A stretch of DNA of 64,000 bases from Candidatus Parcubacteria bacterium (GTDB lineage Bacteria; Patescibacteriota; Patescibacteriia; UBA1558; GWA2-36-10), in the NCBI GenBank assembly GCA_018664825.1, contig JABJNO010000006.1, forward strand, positions 15,157 to 79,156, written 5' to 3'. The notes beneath the pieces are model-generated. The model did not search any database. It saw only the letters and a list, made by a program, of their open reading frames with translations, and was not told where the DNA came from. Of this stretch, positions 16,846 to 44,824 are shown in pieces. The first letter of the stretch is position 1, and every line of letters begins with the position of its first letter. A program made the translations under genes and the position numbers.

Positions 16846-17476
16846 AATAGTTCCATCTATATTGGTAAAAAATAAAGATGGTTTCAAAAGACAACTTGAT
16901 AAAATAAAAAATATATCCAAGTATATCCAAATAGATATTATGGATGGAGTTTTGGTATCTACCAAAAATAGCGTCTCCCCCAAAAGCATCTCCCCTCTGA
17001 CACGAGGCTACAAAATGGAGATCCACTTAATGGTCAAAGATGTACCGCGCTATATAGAGCAATGGAAAAAGCTCTCTAATGTCAAAAAAATAATCTGGCA
17101 CTACGAAGCAGAAAAAAACAACAAAGCAATAATCTACCTAGCCAAAAAATTGCGAAAAAATAAAATAAAGCCAGGCCTAGCGATCAATCCAAATACTTCA
17201 CTATCCAAAATAAAAGATATTATAAAATATTTTGATACTATCCAGGTGATGGGTGTCACTCCTGGTAAACAAGGACAAAAATTCCAGCCCAAGGTCCTAA
17301 AAAAAATAAAAGGCCTACACCAAAAATACCCCAAGCTAAATATAGCTATTGATGGTGGAGTAAATGAAAAAAATTTTTCTGCAATCAAAAAAGCAGGGGC
17401 AAATATCATAGGCCTCGGCTCCTACCTCCAAAAATCACCCGACCCAAAACAAAGTTTAAAAAAACTGCCTCGCTAG
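16829..17476 (+). CDS. rpe: Ribulose-phosphate 3-epimerase (divergent)
   Basis: KIVPSILVKN, IQIDIMDGVLV, EIHLMV, IIWHYEA, GLAINPNT, VMGVTPGKQGQKF and IAIDGGV follow the Rpe TIM-barrel motif order. Overlaps rpiB by 17 nt (operon). Confidence 0.7.
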   Translation: MSKKIKIVPSILVKNKDGFKRQLDKIKNISKYIQIDIMDGVLVSTKNSVSPKSISPLTRGYKMEIHLMVKDVPRYIEQWKKLSNVKKIIWHYEAEKNNKAIIYLAKKLRKNKIKPGLAINPNTSLSKIKDIIKYFDTIQVMGVTPGKQGQKFQPKVLKKIKGLHQKYPKLNIAIDGGVNEKNFSAIKKAGANIIGLGSYLQKSPDPKQSLKKLPR

Positions 17477-18867
17477 GCAGTTTTCTTTATATTCTTTGTT
17501 TCTTTTATTTTATGAATTTTGGGATCATATATCGGTACAGTAAAATAAAATTGACTACCTACATGTTTGATACTATCTACAAATATTTTACCACCCATCA
17601 ATTCTACTAGTTGCTTGGTAATCCAAAGTCCCAAGCCAGTTCCGACAATTCCTCTGGTTTCGTTACTTTGAATACGATAAAATTTATCAAACAATTTTTC
17701 TCTATCCTCGGCTGACATTCCTATGCCCGTGTCTTTGATGGTGATGGTCACAAACTTATCATCTTTTTCAACGATTAATTCAACTTCTCCTTCTTTTGTA
17801 TATTTTACAGAGTTACCTATCAAATTTACCAAAATCTGACGAAGCTTGTCCTCATCTACAAATACTTTTGGCAAGTCATCGGGTATATTTGGCTTCAAGG
17901 CTAGGCCTTTTTCTTTTATTCTCAACTCAAACTCATCCACTATACTACCCAAGAGGCCGGGCAATTCAATCGGAACTCCATTTACTGCCAATCTATTTTG
18001 TTCAATTCTAGATACATTGAGTAGGTCTTCTACGAGGTTGCCCAGTCTATTGACTGAAGCTTCCATTATTTTAAACCCCTTTTGTCCACCTTCATTGAGC
18101 TCACCATAGTCACCATCCAGAGCCATAGACAAATATCCTTTTAATGTAGTGATTGGAGTCCTAAGTTCGTGGGAAGCAATAGATATAAACTCATCTTTCA
18201 TCTTATCTACTTCTTTGAGCTTTCGAAATAATATAGCATGCTCAAAAAGCCTAGTGTTGAGTGCCAAAAGTAATATAACTATCAAAACCGTAACTACCAA
18301 AAAGAAATATGATTTTGCCAGAGTTGCCTTCGTTAGATCATCCATTATCTTGAGAGACATCCGCATACTCAAAACGGCTTGTTTTTCATTTTCTGAGTTA
18401 GACAACGGCATGACCAGCTCCCAAAAACGCTCCTCTTCTGTACCTGTCTCTACTTTACCAGATACCAAAGTAGCAATTGCTTCGTTTTTGTGCCAAGAAA
18501 TTATATAATTTAGGTCATCAGAAGAACGTCCAATAGCAGTATGATCCATACTAGCAACAATTCGGAATCTTTCTCCTTCTTTTTCCAAAACCTCGAGAGT
18601 TTCCAACTCCAAGGTAGCCTTTTTTAATAAATCAATTTTATTCTGCAAATCCTGATCATTTTCAGCATTTTGATAAATAGAATAATTAAACATCTTACCA
18701 ATGTTGTATGCTTGCCGTTGCAAACTCAAGTCTGTGGTGTATTGAGAAGTTTTTACTGACCAAATCGTATTGAGGATGATAGCCAAAGGAATCAAAAGAA
18801 TCAGGATGATAGCATAGACCACCTGATAATCCCTTTTCAAAAATAAACTTGTTTTTTTGCTTGCCAT
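17473..18867 (-). CDS. Sensor histidine kinase (membrane)
   Basis: Two N-terminal TM helices flank a periplasmic domain. H-box ASHELRTPITTLKGY, N-box and G-boxes GIGMSAEDREKLFDKFYR and GTGLGLWITKQLVELMGGKI. No response regulator is adjacent. Confidence 0.8.
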   Translation of the reverse strand: MASKKTSLFLKRDYQVVYAIILILLIPLAIILNTIWSVKTSQYTTDLSLQRQAYNIGKMFNYSIYQNAENDQDLQNKIDLLKKATLELETLEVLEKEGERFRIVASMDHTAIGRSSDDLNYIISWHKNEAIATLVSGKVETGTEEERFWELVMPLSNSENEKQAVLSMRMSLKIMDDLTKATLAKSYFFLVVTVLIVILLLALNTRLFEHAILFRKLKEVDKMKDEFISIASHELRTPITTLKGYLSMALDGDYGELNEGGQKGFKIMEASVNRLGNLVEDLLNVSRIEQNRLAVNGVPIELPGLLGSIVDEFELRIKEKGLALKPNIPDDLPKVFVDEDKLRQILVNLIGNSVKYTKEGEVELIVEKDDKFVTITIKDTGIGMSAEDREKLFDKFYRIQSNETRGIVGTGLGLWITKQLVELMGGKIFVDSIKHVGSQFYFTVPIYDPKIHKIKETKNIKKTA

Positions 18868-18868
18868 T

Positions 18869-21800
18869 TTAAGCTTCTATTTCTTCTCTCTTTCTTTGAT
18901 GCAAAAATATAATAACTATCAACGCAATGATAATGAGTACCGCTGCTCCTATAATATAATAAACTACCATGTTGTTTACATTGTTTGGGACAGTGGCATT
19001 ATCAAAATAATCATCAGCTGTCACCGCTTGGGCAGATTTGACCAAAAAAGAAGTTGGGTTTGATTGTTTTACTATCTTGCCAGTGTCATCATTGACCGTC
19101 ACATAGACCCGATGATGTCCATCAGCCAAAGAATGTTGTATGTCATACGTCCAGTTACCACTAGCGTCTGTCTTGGTGGTCATCACTAAAGGCAAATCAC
19201 TATACAAGAAAAGTGTCACCCAAGTATTTGGTGTTGCTTTACCTCCAAACTTTACATTTTTATCTTGGCTATTGATGTTATTAACATCAAAATTTTTATC
19301 AATCTTTTTTGATTTTACTCTCGGCTGTTCAATCATCTCACCAGCTGCAATAGCCTGCTCCAAATCATTTCTCGTGATTTCTAGCCTGCCTGGCCCCAAA
19401 GGATCATAGCCATTTTTTATTTCCTGACCATCTAGATAGCCATCTCCATCGGTGTCTGGATTGTTTGGATCGGTATCATAATATACTTCCAAGTCATCAC
19501 TCAAGCCATCCTCATCAGTATCAACCATCAAAATAGCCTGATTTACGATAGTCAATCTATCAGTATCTTCCAAAACTGTCTCTGATTTTGATTGAGCAAT
19601 GTATACATTTGTTTCTGCTTCTTCGAGTGGAGTCAGTGGAATAATTTCTTCATCTATACCTCCTTCATTCAAAGTAGCGTTGAGCTCGCCGACTGTCATC
19701 ACCTGTCCTATCAAAGGACTCAAAATATTATTGATATTAGTGGTTTGTCTTTGCCCAATAACCAAACGATTTAAGTATTCATCTCTCAATATATCATTAC
19801 AAATACTGATATCATCAAGCTGACAATCTACTGCGCTTCCATATTCTTCCAAGAGATAGTCTTTGCACTGATTGATATCTACAATACCCTTGTCCTGACA
19901 CTCCGTGTCCACATGAACTCTATTGAGATAGTCTTCACAAGAAATAGCATCATATATACCCTGTTCAATACACTCGTCAGCCAACGAGTCTATAGTCGCT
20001 CGAAATAAACGACAATTTTCTTCATCGCTAATGCCAGCTTCTATACAACTGGTATAAATAGTTACCGCCACACTAGCCCCTGAATCAGAAATTTCCTCTT
20101 CTTGCTCTGGAATATCCTCGGGCTCTACATCCTCATCTTCTACTTCATCCTCTACCTCGTCTTCTACCTCAGAAACAACAACATTTCCCTGCTCAATAGA
20201 AAAATAAATACGCTCTGTTTGTAAGGTTCCGTTTATCAATTCGATATAAAAATAATAATCTCCATCCTCTATCAACTGATTACCGTCTTCATCTTCAGAA
20301 TAAAATGTATATAACAACTTGTTGCTGATATTTGGATTATCTTCTTCATCTATGCTCCATGGCTCCAAAGATTCCCAATCTATCGTATAATTATTCCCCG
20401 TTTTATCAGAAACCTCTTCACCATCAACATAAAATAAATGCTGAACTGAAGCAAATGAATTTAATGATGTTAAAAATGGAAAACCGAGAGTAGCCCTTCC
20501 TTCTCTTCCTTCAAAAATACGCGGAGCGTGCAAATCAAAAATAACATCTTCCGGCACTTCCTGATTCTGACCTTCATTAACTATCTCTATATTTTCCAAA
20601 ATATTACTAGTCACCCATGGAATATACATATTACCCTCTGCCGAATGTTGGAGCCAAGCATCATAGATACCAGAAGTCAGGCCACCTAAACCATCCAAAT
20701 GGGCAGGATCTTTTGCATAAGCATAATCTGCGTCTGGAAAATTATCTCTATTTATTCCGTAGCCTTCAAGCTGACTCCAATCAGCTAAATCAGCTGAAAA
20801 ATAATATTTACTTTCATCAGCTTGATTTTCAAATACAAAATAAACCATCTGATTGTTCAGATCTACATTGGAACTCCCCATCAAAGTCACATCACCCTCC
20901 ATAAAAGATTCAGTATTGTGAAAATTGAGAACCACGTCATCCGGTGGCGGTGGTGGCAAATCCGGATCTTCTGTTTCTGCCACAATCAAGTTGTAGCCAT
21001 AGGTCGGCAGTCCTCCGCCTTCAAGCTCATATATAGTTCCGTCTTCTTTGGTGATTTCAAAAATCAAGTCATAGTTTCCTGATGGAAAAATATCGTCCCA
21101 AAAGTCGAGTATTATTCCACCTCCCCAAATATAACTATCTGGCTGTACCTGCGCAAGAACACCACCTCCGGCAATAGCGGCATCATCTTGATAAACAAAC
21201 TCGATCCCAACATCTGTAGCTATAAAATCTAATTCGATCTCAATATCAATTGGTATTATACCGTTGGAAATCAAATCACTACCTGGCACAGGAGCGATTA
21301 TGACGACCTCTTCTACTTCTGGTTGTTCTGTCAAATTACTCACTGCATATGACTCCAAAACAAACAGTGGTTCGTCTAGAGAAATTCCATTGATCTCCTC
21401 ATAAATTTTTACACTGTACGTACTATTTTGGTACAATGGTGTCCCATCAGCTCGGGCAACTGTAGTATCCCAATAACCAGAATACATCAATACACCATCA
21501 GCATCTGAAGAAAAAAGATCAACAGACCCTACATAATAATCAAAGACGTTAAAAATTTTGGCTGTTAGCTTAATGTTATCCCCCAATGGTCTGTTTATTT
21601 CAAATGCCAAAAGTACTTCTCCTGACAAGTCGGTCTCAGTAGGAGAAATAACACTTACTATTTCCAAAGGTACTATTTCTGGAATATCGACAGCAGGAGG
21701 AACTATAGAAAATCTTACATAATTACTAATCGCACCGGTGGGTCCTTCTTCGCCACTACTGCCATCAAGATCAGCTTGCATTATTATCTGATATTCACCA

Positions 21801-22573
21801 TCCGCCAAGCTCGATATATCATAATCGCGTACTCCCCATGTACCATAGACTAGGTCAAGTTGTTGACCATGAATATCTTCTACCAATGCTGGCACAACAA
21901 TAATTCCATTGTTATCAACTTCATGAATATCAAAAAAAATGTTGTTCAAATATTCAGTACCTTCAAATTCAAATATTATATCCATTGTATCATCAGTAAT
22001 CTCCATATCCGTCAATGGATTAAGAAACGTTGTATCACCCCCAATATCATACTGCTGTGGGTCTTGATTTCTAGATGCCAACAAGACAAAACTTTCCAAA
22101 GGTGACTCTATCTCATCAGACAAAAGACCATTGTTGTCAAATATCTGAGCAGTTACTTTCAAATAATAGTCTCCAGCTGGAAAATCAGCGGTATCCCAAC
22201 TAGAAATAGCTTTCCAACTACCATCACTCTGCAGTTCAGCTGGAAACTCTAGGTTTGTTATAGTCCCCAAAAGAGTAAAGTGTGCATGTGTAAAACCCTG
22301 ATTAGGTCCAATGTTGGCCTGAATATTTAGAACCGTGCCCCCTGGTATATCTACGCCCTGAACAGGATCGATATAAGTAGCCGACAGTTGTGGCAATTGT
22401 GGAGGGTCAATAATCTGAGCTCGTGTAGCCACAAAGACCAAGCCATACATTAGAGACAAAGCGATAACAAAAGTTATCATCAAATGATGTTGTACTCTTT
22501 CTAAAATCATAAAAAAAAATTTGTATTTAACTGAGTTTATTATACCACAAATCAATACAAATAAAAAAATCAC
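18869..22573 (-). CDS. Giant (1234 aa) cell-surface protein with signal/TM N-terminus, acidic tandem repeats, TSP3-like Ca-binding module and C-terminal TM anchor
   Basis: VEDEVEDEVEDEDVEPEDIPEQEEE repeats. Cys-rich segment CIEAGISDEENC...CIEQGIYDAISCEDY...CQDKGIVDINQCKDY. DTDEDGLSDDLEVYYDTDPNNPDTDGDGYLDGQEIKNGYDPLGPG motif. C-terminal helix VVYYIIGAAVLIIIALIVIIF then LHQRKREE. Confidence 0.55.
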   Translation of the reverse strand: MIFLFVLICGIINSVKYKFFFMILERVQHHLMITFVIALSLMYGLVFVATRAQIIDPPQLPQLSATYIDPVQGVDIPGGTVLNIQANIGPNQGFTHAHFTLLGTITNLEFPAELQSDGSWKAISSWDTADFPAGDYYLKVTAQIFDNNGLLSDEIESPLESFVLLASRNQDPQQYDIGGDTTFLNPLTDMEITDDTMDIIFEFEGTEYLNNIFFDIHEVDNNGIIVVPALVEDIHGQQLDLVYGTWGVRDYDISSLADGEYQIIMQADLDGSSGEEGPTGAISNYVRFSIVPPAVDIPEIVPLEIVSVISPTETDLSGEVLLAFEINRPLGDNIKLTAKIFNVFDYYVGSVDLFSSDADGVLMYSGYWDTTVARADGTPLYQNSTYSVKIYEEINGISLDEPLFVLESYAVSNLTEQPEVEEVVIIAPVPGSDLISNGIIPIDIEIELDFIATDVGIEFVYQDDAAIAGGGVLAQVQPDSYIWGGGIILDFWDDIFPSGNYDLIFEITKEDGTIYELEGGGLPTYGYNLIVAETEDPDLPPPPPDDVVLNFHNTESFMEGDVTLMGSSNVDLNNQMVYFVFENQADESKYYFSADLADWSQLEGYGINRDNFPDADYAYAKDPAHLDGLGGLTSGIYDAWLQHSAEGNMYIPWVTSNILENIEIVNEGQNQEVPEDVIFDLHAPRIFEGREGRATLGFPFLTSLNSFASVQHLFYVDGEEVSDKTGNNYTIDWESLEPWSIDEEDNPNISNKLLYTFYSEDEDGNQLIEDGDYYFYIELINGTLQTERIYFSIEQGNVVVSEVEDEVEDEVEDEDVEPEDIPEQEEEISDSGASVAVTIYTSCIEAGISDEENCRLFRATIDSLADECIEQGIYDAISCEDYLNRVHVDTECQDKGIVDINQCKDYLLEEYGSAVDCQLDDISICNDILRDEYLNRLVIGQRQTTNINNILSPLIGQVMTVGELNATLNEGGIDEEIIPLTPLEEAETNVYIAQSKSETVLEDTDRLTIVNQAILMVDTDEDGLSDDLEVYYDTDPNNPDTDGDGYLDGQEIKNGYDPLGPGRLEITRNDLEQAIAAGEMIEQPRVKSKKIDKNFDVNNINSQDKNVKFGGKATPNTWVTLFLYSDLPLVMTTKTDASGNWTYDIQHSLADGHHRVYVTVNDDTGKIVKQSNPTSFLVKSAQAVTADDYFDNATVPNNVNNMVVYYIIGAAVLIIIALIVIIFLHQRKREEIEA

Positions 22574-31320: not shown

Positions 31321-31352
31321 AAAAAGACCTCCCTTTGGAGGTCTTTTTTATT
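31321..31352 (+). terminator. Bidirectional intrinsic terminator between ahpC and the paralog array
   Basis: aaaaagacctccctttggaggtctttttta. A 9-bp stem flanked by A and T runs. Confidence 0.7.
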
Positions 31353-31944
31353 ATTCATATAATATTTTGTCTTTCAAGCCTCCTAGTCTTTTTATTCTAA
31401 AAGCTTCTTCCACCAAAGATGCATCTACATAAATATGACCATGCACAACCAAATCATCGGGCAACTCTTTTATCTTTGTTTTTTTCATATACAACACCCC
31501 TCCTACTTCCAGGCCTTTTGGCAGTTTTGTAATACCGTCATTGTCCAAGTATAGATCTCCTGTTGTAGTCAGATTGTCTGGTATTCTCGAATCAATATCT
31601 TCTGTATCTTTTAAATTTAAAAATCCCTGGACAGCTATTATTTTTATTTCTTCTCCATTTTTTATTCTAGTTTCAACTTTTACTTTTTCTCTAGGCTCAA
31701 CTTCTTCACCAATCTCCTTTGATTGAGCTATGACAGCCTCAACTGTAAACTTGTAGCCATTGATAACTCCTACTTCTTTTTTTAAAAAATCTAAACTTGG
31801 CTCCAACTGATGTTTTTTTAGTGACCTCAACAATCTAAAATCACAATCTTTTGAATCTGCCAAAAAATTGTTATCAAAATTTTGCTTACTTTCTTTGAGC
31901 TGAACAATTTCTCTTCTCAGGTTTTCACAATCTATTGCTTGCAT
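31351..31944 (-). CDS. LRR-like repeat protein, member 1 of a five-gene tandem paralog array (cytoplasmic, no signal peptide)
   Basis: C-terminal triple about-21-aa repeat IPDNLTTTGDLYL / ITKLPKGLEVGGVLYM / IKELPDDLVVHGHIYV. N-terminus MQAIDCENLR. DNA segments are shared with its neighbours. Confidence 0.55.
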   Translation of the reverse strand: MQAIDCENLRREIVQLKESKQNFDNNFLADSKDCDFRLLRSLKKHQLEPSLDFLKKEVGVINGYKFTVEAVIAQSKEIGEEVEPREKVKVETRIKNGEEIKIIAVQGFLNLKDTEDIDSRIPDNLTTTGDLYLDNDGITKLPKGLEVGGVLYMKKTKIKELPDDLVVHGHIYVDASLVEEAFRIKRLGGLKDKILYE

Positions 31945-31953
31945 AATTTTATC

Positions 31954-32529
31954 TTAATCTTCAAGGCCTACGTGTACTGAACCATATATGCCATTTATTC
32001 TAGTCACCTCATCCGTCAAAATGGGATCAATATAAATATCTCCATGTACTATCAAATCATCTGGTAGTTTTTTTATCTTGGTACGGTTGATATGCAGATT
32101 ACCTCCCACTACCAGTCCTCTTGGTAATTTTGTAATCTTTGTACCCTTAAAATTTAAATATTCTTTCACTTCTAAATTGTTGGGTATTTTTGAGTCTATA
32201 TCATTCATCATATCTAAGACTAATCCAATTTTTATGACAGTAATCTTTATACTAGCACCATCTCTATTTCTATACTTAAAATCTAATGACTTTTCTATAT
32301 CTCCTGGATTAAGCCTCATATCAATGGCCTCAATTGCAAACCTATACCCTTTAATAGCTTCCACTTCTGACCTCAAAGATTCTAAACGTTTTTCTAGGCT
32401 AGTTTTCCATAATCTGAGATCAACAAAATCCCACTTCTCTGAAGTGCCTCTACACCTTTCATCAAAACCATCTTTGTCCTCTTTGGTACGATGTATAAAT
32501 TTCCTCGTTTTTTCACAATCTATTGGCAT
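31954..32529 (-). CDS. LRR-like repeat protein, array member 2
   Basis: MPIDCEKTRK ... KEDKDGFD ... WDFVDLRLW ... KGYRF; C-terminus ITKLPRGLVVGGNLHINRTKIKKLPDDLIVHGDIYID. Confidence 0.55.
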   Translation of the reverse strand: MPIDCEKTRKFIHRTKEDKDGFDERCRGTSEKWDFVDLRLWKTSLEKRLESLRSEVEAIKGYRFAIEAIDMRLNPGDIEKSLDFKYRNRDGASIKITVIKIGLVLDMMNDIDSKIPNNLEVKEYLNFKGTKITKLPRGLVVGGNLHINRTKIKKLPDDLIVHGDIYIDPILTDEVTRINGIYGSVHVGLED

Positions 32530-32537
32530 GTTTTTAT

Positions 32538-33128
32538 TTATCCCATTAAATGTATATCTCCTCGTAAATTTCCTGCTTTACGTAATCGAACTACCTCGTC
32601 TCTCAAACTTTCGTCAAGATAAATATCTCCGTGAACCATCAAATCGTCTGGTAATTTTTTTATTTTGCTGTTATTGATATGCAGATTACCTCCCACTACC
32701 AAGCCTTTTGGTAATTCCGTAATATCTGAACCTTGTAAAAATATATTTTCCATCACAGTCATGTTTTCCGGTATTTTTCCATCCAAATTTTCTACTCTCT
32801 TTAAATTCAAAATATCTTTTACTACTATTGTTCTAATCTTTTCTCCACCCCTTAGCCCGCCCTCTACAAGTACTTTTTTTCTTGCTCCCTCAAAATCCTT
32901 GGGCTCACCTACACTAGCCATGACTACACTCACTATAAATTTATAACCTTTAACAAATTTTAACTCTCCCCTTAAAAAATCCAAACGCTGGCCCAGGGCA
33001 ATCCTCCATTGCCTCAAAGCAACGAAATCCCAATCGGCCACTTCACCAATACAAGATTTATCAAACCATCTTTTATCTTCCTTGGCGTGCTCTATGGTTA
33101 TTCTTATTTTTTCACAATCTATTATCAT
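32538..33128 (-). CDS. LRR-like repeat protein, array member 3
   Basis: MIIDCEKIRI ... KEDKRWFD ... WDFVALRQW ... KGYKF; C-terminus ITELPKGLVVGGNLHINNSKIKKLPDDLMVHGDIYLD. Identical 29-nt DNA stretch shared with member 2 (attgatatgcagattacctcccactacca). Confidence 0.55.
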   Translation of the reverse strand: MIIDCEKIRITIEHAKEDKRWFDKSCIGEVADWDFVALRQWRIALGQRLDFLRGELKFVKGYKFIVSVVMASVGEPKDFEGARKKVLVEGGLRGGEKIRTIVVKDILNLKRVENLDGKIPENMTVMENIFLQGSDITELPKGLVVGGNLHINNSKIKKLPDDLMVHGDIYLDESLRDEVVRLRKAGNLRGDIHLMG

Positions 33129-33130
33129 AT

Positions 33131-33721
33131 TTATGCTGCTACAAAGAGACTACGTATATTACCCTTTTTCTTTAGCTTGGTTATTTTATCTCCCAATAAA
33201 GGTAGTTGTTTTTGATTAATAACCAACTCTCCCTCAACTACAAGATCATCTGGAATATCCGTAATAAGAGTACCCCTAATATCCATATTACCACTTACTA
33301 GTAGATCACGAGGTATTTCTCTTACATTAAGATCTTTGATAAAAAAATTTCCATCTATTGTCCAGTCACCCGGAATCCTTACTGTCTTTTCACCAAATAT
33401 ATCTTTTCCGTTTTCTGTAAAATCCAAACCTCCTTTGTAGAGCATTCTTCCGTGTCTTTTAAATTCCATGAACTCTACCATAGATAAGAGATCTTCTCTA
33501 TCAGAACTTCTGATAAATTCCATCATATCAACCCCAATTACTTCTCCTTTGAGTTTTTCCAATGCTTCACTTATATTTATTTTTTTTTCTCTCAACTTGC
33601 CAAGATCCAAAGAATCATCGATAGCATCAAATTGATCCACAAAACCAGCAAAGGCTGGCTTTGTTACCTTTAGTAAATATCTCCATTGTTCACATTCTAC
33701 TTTGTTTTTATTTTTAAACAT
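33131..33721 (-). CDS. LRR-like repeat protein, array member 4 (divergent N-terminus)
   Basis: C-terminus IPGDWTIDGNFFIKDLNVREIPRDLLVSGNMDIRGTLITDIPDDLVVEGELVIN retains the repeat. Confidence 0.5.
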   Translation of the reverse strand: MFKNKNKVECEQWRYLLKVTKPAFAGFVDQFDAIDDSLDLGKLREKKINISEALEKLKGEVIGVDMMEFIRSSDREDLLSMVEFMEFKRHGRMLYKGGLDFTENGKDIFGEKTVRIPGDWTIDGNFFIKDLNVREIPRDLLVSGNMDIRGTLITDIPDDLVVEGELVINQKQLPLLGDKITKLKKKGNIRSLFVAA

Positions 33722-33725
33722 ACTT

Positions 33726-34319
33726 TTAATACAACATGCTTAATTTGCCACCTATCTGACCTTTGTCTTTTAATCTTTGCATCAGCTCTCTACGAGGATC
33801 ATTGGGATCAGAAAAAGTCAGATAACAATCTCCCTTGATGATAATATCTTCTGGAATATAATATCTATCGTCTTTATCAAATGAAAAATTACCATTCACT
33901 ACTAAACCTTTTGGTAAAAAACTAATATCTGTATTATTAATATTAAAATCCCCCTCAACAACCAAATTCTTTGGTAAAAATTTGATTGGCCTTCTAGATA
34001 AATCCAAATCTTCTTGATATATTATCTTTCTTTTTTCAAAACTAATTCCAAATCGTGGTAAAAAATATTTTCTATCATCTTCCGAACCTACCATGGCTAC
34101 CAATCTCCGTATTTGCTTTTGAGCAGGAACCATAAAAAGGGTTTCTTCAATATTTTTTTTCAACAAGCCAAAAGAATAGGTAGTATTTCCAATAGTAGCA
34201 AAATTTCTTGTTTTTATTGCATCTGGATATTGATCAGCAAAGTCAACTACAAAGCCCTTCATAGCTCCTAGGTCTCTCCTCAGTTCTTCACAATATTTTT
34301 TTGGTGTTTCTTGGCTCAT
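33726..34319 (-). CDS. LRR-like repeat protein, array member 5 (divergent N-terminus), first gene of the array
   Basis: C-terminus IKFLPKNLVVEGDFNINNTDISFLPKGLVVNGNFSFDKDDRYYIPEDIIIKGDCYL. Confidence 0.5.
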   Translation of the reverse strand: MSQETPKKYCEELRRDLGAMKGFVVDFADQYPDAIKTRNFATIGNTTYSFGLLKKNIEETLFMVPAQKQIRRLVAMVGSEDDRKYFLPRFGISFEKRKIIYQEDLDLSRRPIKFLPKNLVVEGDFNINNTDISFLPKGLVVNGNFSFDKDDRYYIPEDIIIKGDCYLTFSDPNDPRRELMQRLKDKGQIGGKLSMLY

Positions 34320-35006: not shown

Positions 35007-36365
35007 ATGCCAAAACTAAAACTAACATCATTTGGAGCCGCTGGTGAAGTGACTGGCTCTTGCCACCTTCTCAATATCGGAGGCTATCGCCTACTGGTCG
35101 ATTGTGGTATGTGGCAGGGTGGCCAAGAAGGTTATCTCAAAAACTGGGACAAATTTTTGTTTGATGTCAAAAGTATCGATGCTGTCATCCTCACTCACGC
35201 TCACCTAGATCACTGTGGTCGTCTAGCCAAGCTCTATGCTCATGGCTACAAAGGAAAAGTCTATGCCACTCCTCCTACTATCAAGCTAGCCGAAATCGTC
35301 CTGACTGATAGTTTCAATATAATGAAGGAAAAAGCTGCACGGAAAAAACTTCCCATGCTACATAGCTCACGGGACTTAAAAAGACTATACGAAAGCTGGA
35401 AGCCAACTCCATATTACAACCAAGTAAACCTGACTTCTGATATAAAATTCAAATTTCACAACGCTGGACATATCCTAGGCTCTGCAATAGTAGAGATCAC
35501 CGCTGGCGACAAGACCGTCGTGTTTTCTGGAGATATAGGTGGGCATGATATGCCCCTAGTCAAAGACATAGACTACGTCCCTCACGCTGACTATGTAGTC
35601 TGTGAAGGTACTTATGGTGATCGTGTACACGAACATCTCAAAGATAGAAACCAAAAACTAATCCAAGCAGTCCAAAACGTCACTTTGAACAACTCCACTC
35701 TACTGATTACAATCTTTGCGATCGAAAGAACTCAGGATATACTCAAAGTACTCAATGACTACTACGAAAGTCACCTAGACTTCCGCGTACCTGTCTATCT
35801 AGATAGTCCAATGGCCGCCACTGCTACCAAAGTATACAAACAAGAACTAGAACACCTAAATCCCGCCGCTCAAGAAACTCTAAAAAGAGATAAGGACATC
35901 TTTAATTTTCCTCATCTTGATATCACCAACAATATCCGTCAATCAAAAAAAATAAACAGTGCCTCGCCACCAAAGATAATCATGGCTGGTAGTGGTATGG
36001 CTGAAGGTGGACGAATGATTCATCATTTTGCTCACTACTTATCAAACAATAACAACCACGTCTTGTTTATGGGATTCCAAGTGCCTGGTACACTAGGACA
36101 CAAAATCCTCAATGGAGAAGGTGGTTTTAACTACTACGGCAAAGACATCCCTGTCCGTGCTCAAGTAGACCAGATAGATGGCTTTTCTGCTCATGGAGAC
36201 CTAAATGCTTTGATGGACTGGCTAGATCATTTTGAAAAACCTCAACGAATCGTCCTGGCTCACGGAGATCAAAGGGTATTGGAAAGTTTTGAAAAAACAA
36301 TAAACGATAAACTAGGATATCAAACAACGATATCTAGACAAAATATACCTATCAATTTAAATTAA
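35007..36365 (+). CDS. MBL-fold beta-CASP family ribonuclease (RNase J / CPSF-like)
   Basis: HxHxDH motif ILTHAHLDHCGRL, GD, the beta-CASP motifs and a C-terminal His (AHGD). 452 aa. Confidence 0.7.
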   Translation: MPKLKLTSFGAAGEVTGSCHLLNIGGYRLLVDCGMWQGGQEGYLKNWDKFLFDVKSIDAVILTHAHLDHCGRLAKLYAHGYKGKVYATPPTIKLAEIVLTDSFNIMKEKAARKKLPMLHSSRDLKRLYESWKPTPYYNQVNLTSDIKFKFHNAGHILGSAIVEITAGDKTVVFSGDIGGHDMPLVKDIDYVPHADYVVCEGTYGDRVHEHLKDRNQKLIQAVQNVTLNNSTLLITIFAIERTQDILKVLNDYYESHLDFRVPVYLDSPMAATATKVYKQELEHLNPAAQETLKRDKDIFNFPHLDITNNIRQSKKINSASPPKIIMAGSGMAEGGRMIHHFAHYLSNNNNHVLFMGFQVPGTLGHKILNGEGGFNYYGKDIPVRAQVDQIDGFSAHGDLNALMDWLDHFEKPQRIVLAHGDQRVLESFEKTINDKLGYQTTISRQNIPINLN

Positions 36366-41260: not shown

Positions 41261-41270
41261 AGTTTATTTA

Positions 41271-41298
41271 AAACTCCACGAAAGTGGGGTTTTTTTAT
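41271..41298 (+). terminator. Intrinsic terminator after nrdJ
   Basis: ctccacgaaagtgggg, then ttttttt. Confidence 0.6.
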
Positions 41299-41356
41299 TG
41301 GACAAGTAATAAGAGTGCTGATAAGATTTAAATATACTTACTAATTAAATTACATT

Positions 41357-41974
41357 ATGGAAATTTTAAACAACCCCTGGATAATAACTATTGGAAGTGG
41401 CATAATTGTCGCTATATTTTCTTTTTTTATCCTAAGAAAAAAATCTGAGCCTATGCCTGCTAAAAAATTAACACAGGCAGGAAAACACAATCAATCTATT
41501 AATATTGATATAAAAGATGGGGACAACAAAATAAGTATCAACGAACGAGATAAAAATAGGAAAAAACATGACAACCAAATGGATATAGATAATCTAAAAA
41601 AAATAACAAACATACTATTTGTTGATGATGATCCCAATTACATGATTGTCAAAATATTAAAAAAGCAAGGCTGGATAAATACAAAAATTGTTACTGATAT
41701 CATTGATCCGGATAAATTTAATGACGTACATGTATTTTTTGTTGATATAAATGGGGTCGGTAAAAAAATGCACCTCAAAGATGAAGGCATGGGTTTAGCC
41801 TTGCTCTTAAAAGATAAGTTTGTAGATAAAAAGGTTATTTTATACTCTTCTGACACAAATAGAGATATGGCCCATCCAGTCTTCAAAAAAATAGATGGAA
41901 TTTTACCTGCAGATGCTCAAATTTATCAATTTACAAATATACTTGAACAATTTGCAAAAGAGATAAAAATTTAA
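41357..41974 (+). CDS. Membrane-anchored protein with a degenerate receiver (REC)-like domain
   Basis: N-terminal TM helix. NILFVDDDPNYMIVKILKKQGW ... VHVFFVDINGVG ... KVILYSSD follows the beta-alpha pattern of CheY-like domains (acidic pocket DDD, candidate phospho-Asp in FFVD). GC about 25%. Confidence 0.35.
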   Translation: MEILNNPWIITIGSGIIVAIFSFFILRKKSEPMPAKKLTQAGKHNQSINIDIKDGDNKISINERDKNRKKHDNQMDIDNLKKITNILFVDDDPNYMIVKILKKQGWINTKIVTDIIDPDKFNDVHVFFVDINGVGKKMHLKDEGMGLALLLKDKFVDKKVILYSSDTNRDMAHPVFKKIDGILPADAQIYQFTNILEQFAKEIKI

Positions 41975-41976
41975 AA

Positions 41977-42996
41977 ATGTTTTACTATCATCTACTCGAC
42001 AATAACAATGAACTAGTTTTATCTAATCTTCCTCCAGAATTAAAAAAATACTTTACAAAATGTAAAGATAAGAATAAGCTATCACGTTTTAATGGGCAAA
42101 AATGCAGAGAGGGTAAATTAGCTGATGGTACTATTGGAACTGCATATATACTCACAACAGATACTAATGAGGTTAATAGTTCAAAAATCTTCCAAGACAA
42201 ACTAGCATTATATTTAAAATTTATTCAAGAAATAATAAATATAAAAAATGATACTGTAAACAAAATATTACATGAAATAACCAAAATTAACGGCCATTGT
42301 TTACTGGAATTATTTGATATAATACCAAATGATATAAGTAAAACTAAAACTTATAAAAAACAAATTTTAAAAGTAGAAAAACAAATTATAGCCAAAACCA
42401 AGGATACAGCAAAAAGCTTATTTAGCCTACACAGAAAAATATTACACATAAAGACCACTTGCTCTAATTTAAAACTTTTATTTAGCAAAAAAATAACCGT
42501 AGATAAAGAAAGGCACGATATAGCAAACGCAATTAAACCTAGTTTACATGTTTATATTCCACACTTACAAGAAAAAGGTGTACACATAAATGTAAAAGAA
42601 AAAAATACAAAGAATATAAACATGAATTTTGAGTACTTCGAAGCTGCCATGGTACCTCTTTTAGATAATACACTTAAATATATCTTGCATGACTCTACTC
42701 TTCATATTTATTTTAAAAACTCCGAAGAGGGTTTCATAATAAACTTTGATATGATAAGCATGGCCATAACAAAAGAGGAAGAAGAAGATATTATGAAATA
42801 TGGGTTTTCTGGAATAAACGCAAAAAAGAATCAAAAAAATGGTAAAGGCATTGGAATGACTACTATAAAAGATTCATTAAAGGTTAATAATGCTAAAATA
42901 AAGTTTGAAAATAATGTTAATGGAAGAAGAGAAAAAAGATATAAAAACACCACCTATGAAAGGAATATATTTAAAATAATTTTTCTGGATCAGTAA
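41977..42996 (+). CDS. Soluble histidine-kinase-like ATPase (HATPase_c N-box and G2-box present)
   Basis: N-box MVPLLDNTLKYILH. G2-box GKGIGMTTIKD. Candidate H-box HEITKINGH. Starts 3 nt after the preceding stop. Extremely AT-rich. Confidence 0.4.
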   Translation: MFYYHLLDNNNELVLSNLPPELKKYFTKCKDKNKLSRFNGQKCREGKLADGTIGTAYILTTDTNEVNSSKIFQDKLALYLKFIQEIINIKNDTVNKILHEITKINGHCLLELFDIIPNDISKTKTYKKQILKVEKQIIAKTKDTAKSLFSLHRKILHIKTTCSNLKLLFSKKITVDKERHDIANAIKPSLHVYIPHLQEKGVHINVKEKNTKNINMNFEYFEAAMVPLLDNTLKYILHDSTLHIYFKNSEEGFIINFDMISMAITKEEEEDIMKYGFSGINAKKNQKNGKGIGMTTIKDSLKVNNAKIKFENNVNGRREKRYKNTTYERNIFKIIFLDQ

Positions 42997-43290
42997 TTTT
43001 TTATTAAAATCCGAGCTTATAAAGTTTGAATAAAATTTTACAGCAAAATGAAATGTCCTCCGCCAAAAGCGGAGGAATTTTTATTTGTTTGAGGACGTAG
43101 GACGAGTTATAAAAATTAATGGAGTTTTGCTGATACAAATTTATGAAAAGTTTATCTAGCGAGCCGCTTTTTTCTGCTACTTTTTTGGCGGGCAAAAAAG
43201 TGGCGAAAGAAACAAAAAAAAGTACAAGAAGAAAAGCTAGCTAAAGAAAAAAAATAATGATAATATAAAAGCATAAATTAAATTAAAACT

Positions 43291-44028
43291 ATGAAACTAT
43301 TTAAAAACCAAAAAGGATTTAATGACGTAATCACCCTCGCCATTATAGGTGGTATAATTGGCGCCTTATTTATAACAGGCACTTATATATGGCAAGAGAT
43401 GAAGCAGGGCGACAATTTTATAGTCTACAAAATAAACAAAGACTCCGAACCAGTTGAAAAAAAACTAGGAGATTTTATAGAATTTAGCATCCTGGATCTA
43501 GATGTAGAGGCTACCAAAAAATACATCCAAGAAAATAAAACATACAGCCAAACTTATAATATAAATAATGTAAGAAAAGTCATCCATAAAGACTTGGATG
43601 GAGATAGCATAAATGAAGCTATAGTTGAGTTTGACACTGACCCTTATAAGACAAGGGATCTATTGGAGCAACTTAGTAGAAAAATAATCAGACCCGCACA
43701 TGCAGGTGGCTGGCCTACAGCAAGTATCTTTGGAGTATTCAAATATAATACAACAGATAAAATATGGCGCCCAATATACATGGACTATGTTGCTATTGGT
43801 GTTTGGGGTTGTGCGGATGAAGTAGAAGATTGCTATGATGATATAAAAGGAAATAAAATTCCCGAAATAGTAAGAATAGAAATATTAAACAAACAATACG
43901 GAGTGACTCCTGAAAAACCACTAAAGACTGATATCCTGATTGAGAAACAATCTTGTAGCGGAACCACACCCTGCAAATACATACTACATTTTGAAAATTT
44001 AGAATTTACAAAAGAAGAAATAGAATAA
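43291..44028 (+). CDS. Membrane-anchored hypothetical protein
   Basis: N-terminal TM helix LAIIGGIIGALFITGTYIW. No recognised domain. Confidence 0.4.
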   Translation: MKLFKNQKGFNDVITLAIIGGIIGALFITGTYIWQEMKQGDNFIVYKINKDSEPVEKKLGDFIEFSILDLDVEATKKYIQENKTYSQTYNINNVRKVIHKDLDGDSINEAIVEFDTDPYKTRDLLEQLSRKIIRPAHAGGWPTASIFGVFKYNTTDKIWRPIYMDYVAIGVWGCADEVEDCYDDIKGNKIPEIVRIEILNKQYGVTPEKPLKTDILIEKQSCSGTTPCKYILHFENLEFTKEEIE

Positions 44029-44101: not shown

Positions 44102-44824
44102 ATGGCTGAAAAAACAAACAAATTTAAAGACTGCTCTTTCTGTTCTGAAAAGATCCTAGAAAGTGCAACAAAGTGTAAACATTGCGGAGAATGGCTAAAT
44201 AATACAGTGCCCCGTCCAGGTGTGACAATGCATGTCAGTGATAAAAACAAGAAAATCGGAATATTTTGGCTAGTCGCTCCCACCCTATCCATGGTAATGG
44301 TTTTGATGTTGTATGCTATTGCTAAATTTGCCTTTGGAGTAAATAACCCAGAAGAAATGACAACAACAATGGGAATAATCAATGTTGTCCTAGGATTCAT
44401 GGGTATAATATCTACCTTTGGAATACTCGCCGGAATACCAATAGGCATTGTCTTCCTAACCAAAAAAACTCCCGTAGACCCGAATATAAAATTTGACTCT
44501 CGTAGTGGTAAAGGTGATCTGTCAGAAATACCAGCCGAAATTCATGGCTGGAGCTGGGGAGCCGCAGGACTTACTTGGCTTTGGGGAATTAGCAATGGTG
44601 TCTGGCTTTCTCTTTTGATGTTTATCCCTTATTTTGGATTGATCTGGTGGATTGTCTTGGGTATAAAAGGAAACGAGTGGGCCTGGAAAGCAAGGCCATG
44701 GACAAGTACCGCTGAATTTATTGCCCATCAAAACAAATGGAAAATATGGGGAATTATAGTTTTCTTTTTACCATTACTGATGCTACTTATAAATATTCTC
44801 GTAGTAATAGCCGCTTTTTCATAA
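44102..44824 (+). CDS. Zinc-ribbon-fronted polytopic membrane protein
   Basis: CSFCSEKILESATKCKHCGEW zinc ribbon, then about 5 TM helices. Confidence 0.45.
   Translation: MAEKTNKFKDCSFCSEKILESATKCKHCGEWLNNTVPRPGVTMHVSDKNKKIGIFWLVAPTLSMVMVLMLYAIAKFAFGVNNPEEMTTTMGIINVVLGFMGIISTFGILAGIPIGIVFLTKKTPVDPNIKFDSRSGKGDLSEIPAEIHGWSWGAAGLTWLWGISNGVWLSLLMFIPYFGLIWWIVLGIKGNEWAWKARPWTSTAEFIAHQNKWKIWGIIVFFLPLLMLLINILVVIAAFS

Follow-up and report, generated by a model that had tools for sequence, protein, structure and literature searches.

A divergent PDC-M43 gene pair from Candidatus Parcubacteria, encoding a membrane-tethered receiver and a soluble histidine kinase, as a candidate anti-phage phosphorelay

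Sensor kinases and receiver (REC) domain proteins are found together in described anti-phage systems. Detocs (DtcABC) is a validated abortive infection system in which the His and the Asp are both required, and a minority of its variants have membrane-spanning effectors (Rousset et al. 2023, bioRxiv 10.1101/2023.01.24.525353). Ambrosia (AbrR-A-B-C-D) is a validated defence system that contains an HATPase sensor kinase and a REC protein (bioRxiv 10.1101/2025.09.30.679545). In addition, the PDC systems are a set of 145 candidates that were picked for being embedded in BREX, DISARM or type I restriction-modification (R-M) (Payne et al., bioRxiv 10.1101/2024.01.29.577857). Here, an AT-rich pair of adjacent genes, termed A and B, was analysed within 64,000 nt of a Candidatus Parcubacteria (Candidate Phyla Radiation, CPR) metagenome-assembled genome, the whole of this stretch being referred to as the window. 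On its profile matches and gene order the pair is a divergent, CPR-borne member of the catalogued PDC-M43 family and not an undescribed module, and it is read here as a self-contained mobile two-gene phosphorelay cassette, most likely anti-phage and of the abortive infection type (probability roughly 0.6).

Family membership, mobility and genomic context

Scanning of the window pair against the PADLOC models showed that A matches PDLC04646 (PDC-M43A) with an E value of 2.2e-52 over residues 5-202 (profile positions 7-200 of 203), and that B matches PDLC04647 (PDC-M43B) with an E value of 2.3e-67 over residues 4-337 (profile positions 5-342 of 347). No PADLOC model besides PDC-M43 matched the pair at E≤1, and the two genes lie adjacent on one strand in the order A then B, the same as in PDC-M43. 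This system is catalogued as cassette CAS_00151, FAM_00604>>FAM_02649, with a Count of 72 and the entry 'Assign as candidate' (bioRxiv 10.1101/2024.01.29.577857). The first-pass annotation of the window, which was made from the sequence and its open reading frames (ORFs), had suggested that the module might be novel, a suggestion that the match to an existing PADLOC candidate overturns. A domain description, mechanism or experiment for PDC-M43 was not found in the literature searched.

Gene neighbourhoods were compared across 56 species-representative genome loci collected through the A alignment, and 34 metagenome loci collected through a back-translated DNA pattern for the B H-box. B is directly after A on the same strand in 55/56 genome loci, the exception ending at a contig end, and A is directly upstream of B in 32/34 metagenome loci, the other two contigs being too short upstream; overall, A and B are paired in 87 of the 90 loci, the contig ending too early in the remaining 3. 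No third conserved gene recurs within ±5 genes of the pair. In 52/52 loci the GC of the pair is below that of the flanking DNA (mean difference -9.1 points; Wilcoxon p = 3.5e-10), which holds even for a 60%-GC Pirellulales genome; because all 52 related loci are more AT-rich than their flanks, the low GC is not a chance property of the window. The hosts are mostly Bacteroidota, with scattered occurrences in Patescibacteria, Endomicrobium, Pirellulales, Verrucomicrobiota and E. coli. A second Parcubacteria lineage has a pair 58-63% identical to that of the window, and window B is a divergent Parcubacteria member, being ~25-33% identical to most B proteins. The cassette in the window genome was acquired laterally. 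The first-pass annotation had raised a mobile gene pair as one possibility and had proposed examining the gene neighbourhood; the patchy distribution across phyla, the consistently low GC, the fixed A-B pairing with no third gene, and the prophage and islet loci described below all agree with that proposal.

Relatives of the pair were found in association with defence genes and with phages. In four species (L021, L048, L057 and L059) the pair lies within or against the HsdM/HsdS/HsdR genes of type I R-M, and all six viral contigs in IMG/VR that encode an A relative carry an intact pair. In four distinct P2-like prophage lineages (L067, L068, L070 and L071), and also in E. coli DETEC-P881 (L073), the pair is flanked directly by gpA, the replication endonuclease gene, on one side and by the portal gene on the other. 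This gpA-portal interval of P2 is a defence hotspot, in which P2 itself carries old and tin (Rousset et al., PMC9122126). The DETEC-P881 pair (NZ_CP116100.1, 2445-4106) is present in only 1/5426 complete E. coli genomes, and the protein accessions of this native P2-prophage pair are WP_176600426.1 and WP_113415494.1. In five other E. coli genomes, der and xseA flank an integrase-bounded islet that holds a divergent A-B pair; the islet pair of E. coli T28R (L074, NZ_CP049353.1, 1219780-1221535) encodes proteins of 235 aa and 351 aa in overlapping ORFs that are annotated as hypothetical. The E. coli versions keep all key residues, including Lys185 of A and Met259/Ser261 of B (window numbering). 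The context thus makes a strong case for an immune role, the function itself having the standing of a candidate.

Receiver and kinase architecture

A gave no Pfam match when searched as a single sequence. Its 75 homologues were used to build a family alignment, in which the N-terminus has a conserved hydrophobic segment, the C-terminus forms a domain, and the linker joining them is variable and rich in Asn, Lys and Ser. An AlphaFold2 (AF2) model made with this alignment has a predicted local distance difference test score (pLDDT) above 90 over residues 75-205, where β-strands and α-helices alternate, a helix at 7-25, and disorder at 27-57. Foldseek comparison of A with the PDB returned REC domains for all of the top 50 matches (NtrX, CheY, PorX and QseB among them), with target TM-scores mostly of 0.6-0.78 against stand-alone receiver domains, and PF00072 (Response_reg) was matched by 38/72 homologues individually. 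The receiver residues are conserved in the family: the Asp pair D90/D91 in 72/72 members, D130 in 71/72, S164 in 71/72 and K185 in 70/72. On the predicted fold and these residues, the C-terminal domain is a true CheY-like receiver. A TIR or other flavodoxin-like fold was considered for A and rejected, as the top structural matches are all receivers and the REC catalytic residues are conserved.

The window copy of A retains D90/D91, the phospho-acceptor D130 (FFVDINGVG) and S164, and has Ala185 (GCA) at the conserved Lys at the end of β5, equivalent to K109 of CheY. This is the sole Ala among 72 sequences, it requires two nucleotide substitutions, and both E. coli versions have Lys; as K185A is unique to the window receiver, signalling by this copy may be attenuated or altered. 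The first-pass annotation had described a degenerate REC-like fold from the motifs DDD, FFVD and LYSSD, which do lie at the expected places in A (residues 90-92, 127-130 and 162-166). The term does not fit the family, in which the DD/D/S/K set is essentially invariant; it is the window copy that is without the Lys.

A strong transmembrane (TM) segment is present in 60/72 A homologues, at a median distance of 9 residues from the start of the protein, and the flanking charge is -0.7 on the N-terminal side and +1.5 on the C-terminal side. With an acidic flank before the segment and a basic one after it, the positive-inside rule would place the N-terminus outside and the receiver in the cytoplasm, with an extracytoplasmic part of ~9 residues.

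For B, a single-sequence Pfam search gave HATPase_c at a non-significant E value of 0.074, and no NCBIfam model was matched at its cutoff. A word-based homologue search found 3 matches and an exhaustive HMMER search found 651 cluster representatives (50% identity), almost all of 330-360 aa and matched at full length. The B family profile matched the catalytic domain of SrrB in the PDB (9e-17), then those of CusS, WalK, PhoR and HK853, and these alignments run into helix 2 of the dimerisation and histidine phosphotransfer (DHp) domain, helix 2 of B being aligned to that of SrrB and CusS. PF02518 (HATPase_c) was matched by 79 of the 101 B members examined. A structure model of B (pLDDT 95.3, predicted TM-score 0.86) consists of a β-β-α-β-β-β domain at residues 1-60, a helix at 69-115 that contains H99, a short helical insert, a helix at 141-169, and an α/β domain at 178-336. 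Foldseek comparison with the PDB returned only histidine kinases and histidine kinase-like phytochrome modules, with WalK, HK853, HprS and CusS as the top matches, and the whole-fold matches include the DHp domain of HK853; a GHKL ATPase of the MORC/Hsp90/GyrB/MutL type was rejected, the top structural matches all being sensor kinases. Both folds sought by the first-pass annotation were therefore recovered, a CheY-like fold in A and a DHp and catalytic ATP-binding (CA) kinase in B.

The first-pass annotation was uncertain of the H-box and had advised looking for a conserved His in a DHp-like helix. H99 is invariant (101/101) and is the only invariant His, lying in the family motif RLxHNLxSLNAH, in the context Φ-x-H-[N/D/E]-Φ, within a helix of 47 residues whose partner in the hairpin is helix 141-169. 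The residue at His+1 is Asn in 89/101 members and Glu in the window copy. H99 is a putative phospho-acceptor by its invariance, its helical context and the whole-fold match. The N-box LLDNTLKY and the G2 box GKGIGM, both picked out earlier, fall at the expected residues, and their key positions are conserved (N231 in 100/101, K234/Y235 in 101/101, G289/G291 in 101/101 and G293 in 100/101). Hidden Markov model alignments to SrrB and WalK, and hhalign to an ordinary HisKA kinase encoded elsewhere in the window, showed that the family has Met-x-Ser at the G1 box (Met259 in 99/101, Ser261 in 100/101), where Asp-x-Gly is canonical. An altered G1 box with the N-box and G2 box invariant suggests, at the level of sequence, a changed nucleotide recognition and not a dead domain; the Met-for-Asp pocket may mean that B uses another nucleotide or that its basal activity is unusually low. 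Window B also has a unique Q110L substitution at a position conserved in 95/101 members.

Whole-length alignments of B to PAS/LOV kinases put residues 1-60 at the position of the PAS/LOV domains of WalK, VicK and YF1. About half of the B family has four Cys (CxxCxxxC…C) in this N-terminal domain (window residues 22, 25, 29 and 59; nt 42040-42156), which suggests a metal or redox site in a putative sensor; the window copy is of a Cys-less subtype, as are its relatives in Parcubacteria and the copies in E. coli.

The NCBI names for the window pair are 'response regulator' and 'HAMP domain-containing histidine kinase' (MBT4849400.1; also WP_113415494.1). The HAMP label on B is unsupported, as B has no TM segment and no HAMP domain. 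A response regulator gene preceding a histidine kinase gene is a common order in ordinary two-component operons. The gene order had earlier been called reversed relative to classical systems; the response regulator gene does come first, but the unusual feature is a membrane-tethered receiver with a soluble kinase, not the order. The window also encodes an ordinary HisKA and HATPase_c histidine kinase of 463 aa (17473-18867, minus strand), which served as an internal control for the kinase comparisons and adjoins a 1233-aa Big_13/TSP3-repeat protein (18869-22573). Only the CA domain was aligned when the B family was compared with this kinase by hhalign.

Both ORFs of the module were present on the plus strand, A encoding 205 aa and B 339 aa (Table 1), with a TAA-AA-ATG junction that places the ATG of B 2 nt past the stop codon of A. 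A has a GC content of 29.0%, B of 26.4% and the module as a whole of 27.3%, compared with 36.7% for the window and 41.3% for the upstream neighbour nrdJ, which encodes a class II ribonucleotide reductase of 978 aa with two ATP-cones. Sliding-window GC within the module goes down to 24%. These values are in keeping with the earlier estimate of about 25% GC and with the claim that the composition differs from that of the neighbours, and the borders then proposed, the terminator of nrdJ and a hairpin at about 43060, were both located (Table 1). A terminator scan found 9 terminator-like sites, compared with 2.3 expected in shuffles. A search for att-like direct or inverted repeats around the module returned only short AT-rich chance matches, and no insertion scar was identified. 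The same A-B arrangement occurs on 18 metagenome contigs, where the identical protein sequence recurs.

Table 1 Features of the gene pair and its borders (positions are those of the window; KD, Kyte-Doolittle hydropathy)
Feature	Position	Strand	Basis
Terminator-like hairpin, end of upstream nrdJ, left module border	41270..41293	+	10-pair stem then T-run
Promoter-like site TGGACA-17-TAAGAT, with TG, 30 nt 5' of A	41299..41327	+	Consensus match only
Gene A, membrane-anchored receiver protein, PDC-M43A	41357..41974	+	PADLOC profile, alignment, AF2 model, Foldseek
A residues 8-26 WIITIGSGIIVAIFSFFIL, predicted single TM helix, then RKK	41378..41434	+	Model helix 7-25; mean KD 2.41
A residues 27-83, Asn/Lys/Ser-rich low-complexity linker, predicted disordered	41435..41605	+	pLDDT < 50 at 27-57
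A residues 84-205, CheY-like receiver domain	41606..41971	+	Alignment, AF2 model, Foldseek, Pfam, conserved residues
A residue 185, Ala in place of receiver Lys	41909-41911	+	Codon GCA
Gene B, soluble histidine kinase, PDC-M43B	41977..42996	+	PADLOC profile, HMMER family, structure model, Foldseek
B residues 1-60, small β-β-α-β-β-β domain, putative cytoplasmic sensor	41977..42156	+	Model; whole-length PAS/LOV kinase alignments
B residues 69-169, DHp-like helical hairpin (helix 69-115, insert 116-140, helix 141-169)	42181..42483	+	Model, alignment
B His99 in KILHEITKINGH	42271-42273 (codon)	+	Invariant 101/101
B residues 178-336, catalytic ATP-binding (HATPase_c, Bergerat) domain	42508..42984	+	Profile matches, PF02518, model
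B N-box LLDNTLKY, residues 228-235	42658-42681	+	
B G1-equivalent FDMISMAI with Met259/Ser261, residues 257-264	42745-42768	+	
B G2 box GKGIGM, residues 289-294	42841-42858	+	
Strong bidirectional terminator hairpin TCCTCCGCCAAAAGCGGAGGA and T-run, right module border	43056..43076	.	

Two ORFs downstream, at 43291-44028 and 44102-44824, were considered as further parts of the module and rejected: they lie past the terminator, have no PADLOC match, are absent beside the closest Parcubacteria homologue and are not kept beside the A-B pair at other loci. They encode hypothetical membrane proteins (GC 33.9% and 39.3%, respectively) and have a common 5' leader AAATTAAWTTAAAACTATG; the second combines several TM segments with a zinc-ribbon-like CxxC…CxxC at its N-terminus. 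Elsewhere in the window, the minus strand carries five tandem paralogous ORFs (31351-34319) of 191-197 aa, which are 21-46% identical to one another, have no recorded Pfam family and look like the product of local gene amplification. The gene at 35007-36365 encodes an RNase J-like protein of the β-CASP/metallo-β-lactamase type, and the Anti-Pycsar_Apyc1 entry in its Pfam list most likely reflects the shared metallo-β-lactamase fold, not an anti-defence role.

Proposed function and rival explanations

The reading as an anti-phage phosphorelay draws on the PDC-M43 match, the two folds and their conserved residues, the fixed pairing, the mobility and the defence context, to which the choice of the family as a candidate by 'guilt-by-embedding' adds independently (bioRxiv 10.1101/2024.01.29.577857). 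Detocs provides a precedent that His-to-Asp phosphotransfer can drive abortive infection, variants with membrane effectors included. In the proposed mechanism, the N-terminal domain of B would sense an infection cue in the cytoplasm, B would autophosphorylate on His99, and the phosphoryl group would be transferred to Asp130 of A. Phosphorylation would then cause the receiver domains to associate and the conserved Gly/Ser-rich TM helices to cluster, and the clustered helices would disturb the inner membrane or make it permeable, so that the infected cell is halted before phages are released, the membrane anchor of A being the only effector. A wider generalisation, which is possible and is put forward tentatively, is that PDC-M43 is a minimal immune phosphorelay, with a receiver-gated single TM helix as effector and a histidine kinase with a remodelled nucleotide pocket, that works from the P2 prophages of E. 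coli to ultra-small CPR/Parcubacteria.

Several observations weigh against an anti-phage phosphorelay. The PDC systems are explicitly untested, computational candidates (bioRxiv 10.1101/2024.01.29.577857), and a literature search found no paper naming PDC-M43 or its protein accessions. On the side of the kinase, a HisKA Pfam match was obtained in 0/101 B members, and the isolated DHp segment of B gave no kinase match in the PDB and a probability of 5.5% by hhalign to the HisKA kinase of the window. The His+1 residue is predominantly Asn, where the usual residue is acidic, and with Met in 99/101 members at the adenine-binding Asp position of G1, ATP use by B is not assured from its sequence. 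On the side of the receiver, window A is without the conserved Lys, and phosphorylated A may be either the active or the inactive form. That a lone TM helix could be the killing effector is conjecture. Finally, housekeeping genes surround the pair at most of the 53 species-level loci.

This last observation also favours the first of the rival explanations, in which the pair is an ordinary, non-immune signalling pair that travels well, a cytoplasmic kinase acting on a membrane-tethered CheY-like regulator of a membrane machine for transport, envelope or motility functions. There are well-known single-domain receivers that work through contacts with other proteins, the two-component chemistry is intact, the NCBI annotation is of a response regulator and a histidine kinase, and in some Flavobacteria the synteny of the pair with genes for β-oxidation or topoisomerase IV is conserved. 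However, no conserved partner or target gene lies nearby, the extracytoplasmic part of A amounts to merely ~9 residues, and the GC depression is universal and the distribution across phyla patchy. Housekeeping regulators would also be unexpected in the gpA-portal hotspot of P2 and in type I R-M operons, where the pair recurs, and this explanation is considered improbable.

A second explanation is that the pair is a selfish addiction or exclusion module that does not sense infection, in which A is toxic or blocks phage DNA entry and B restrains or constitutively activates A, stabilising a prophage or island. Small membrane-anchored proteins are typical of superinfection exclusion. The ORFs are tightly coupled, overlapping or nearly abutting; the pair is carried on prophages and on the integrase islet; and the DtcB result in Detocs indicates that phosphorelay systems can sit near toxicity. 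On the other hand, the conserved N-terminal domain of B, located ahead of the DHp region and present as Cys-rich and Cys-less subtypes, resembles a sensor input. Such a module would overlap mechanistically with abortive infection and is hard to tell apart from it by sequence alone; it is likewise given a low probability.

Also improbable is a third explanation, in which the window copy is a decaying or silenced remnant of a transferred system, as Ala185 (alone among 72 and two substitutions away from Lys), Q110L and the Glu in place of Asn at His+1 might suggest, but against which both ORFs are intact, deviations are limited to 2/39 and 2/15 conserved positions, the module has promoter-like and terminator signals, and the identical protein on 18 metagenome contigs together with the 58-63% identical pair in other Parcubacteria argues for purifying selection.

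The family is a large one, with 651 clusters at 50% identity, and its native copy in the defence hotspot of an E. coli P2 prophage makes the preferred reading, an anti-phage phosphorelay, directly testable in E. coli. With the G1 Asp lost across the family, B offers a natural experiment on how GHKL kinases recognise nucleotides. CPR bacteria have very few known defence systems, and the occurrence of the pair in Parcubacteria adds to a sparse picture of lateral anti-phage gene gain by these organisms. The public labels, 'response regulator' or 'hypothetical' together with 'HAMP domain-containing histidine kinase', hide the likely role of the pair.

Comparison with known systems

The window pair and PDC-M43 are of the same family, with full-length matches and the same gene order, and the window copy is distinguished by K185A. 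Classical HisKA two-component systems (HK853-RR468, WalKR and EnvZ-OmpR) have in common with the pair the DHp and CA fold, the N-box, the G2 box and the DD/D/S(T)/K receiver pocket. In contrast to these systems, the pair has an inverted topology (a soluble kinase and a membrane-anchored receiver), no output domain and no HisKA signature, and has Met-x-Ser at G1 in place of Asp-x-Gly-x-Gly and mostly Asn at His+1. The TM effectors of CBASS and Pycsar join a cytoplasmic signal-receiving domain to one or a few TM helices and are believed to kill by disrupting the membrane once a ligand has made them oligomerise. Their gating signal is a cyclic nucleotide and not phosphorylation of an Asp, and their likeness to the window pair is one of description only.

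Ambrosia resembles the window pair in having a kinase/receiver module in defence, and in both cases two-component modules are associated with R-M genes. Ambrosia has five genes, including a methylase, an HNH nuclease and an XRE regulator, none of which is present in the window module, and its REC protein has a winged helix-turn-helix and is proposed to control transcription of the methylase and HNH genes, whereas window A has no helix-turn-helix; the pair has neither a DNA-binding domain nor a fixed R-M partner.

Detocs and the window pair are alike in their kinase and receiver-effector logic and in having no DNA-binding output. Detocs has three genes, dtcA-dtcB-dtcC, with DtcB as a stand-alone buffer receiver, whereas the window pair has two genes and no buffer; the Detocs kinase has tetratricopeptide repeats (TPR), whereas window B has a 60-aa β-rich input domain and no TPR. 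In Detocs effectors the REC domain is N-terminal and the enzymatic or TM domain C-terminal, whereas in window A the TM helix is N-terminal and the REC domain C-terminal, and Detocs effectors are modular, whereas no effector swapping is seen in the window family (A with B in 87/90 loci). Because of the two genes, the missing buffer receiver and TPR, the reversed domain order and the lack of effector modularity, the window pair is not a member of Detocs by the description of that system. If its function is confirmed, the pair would join Detocs as a second architecture whose immune signal is the His-to-Asp phosphotransfer itself, and would be the smallest such system, with two genes in ~1.6 kb and no enzymatic effector.

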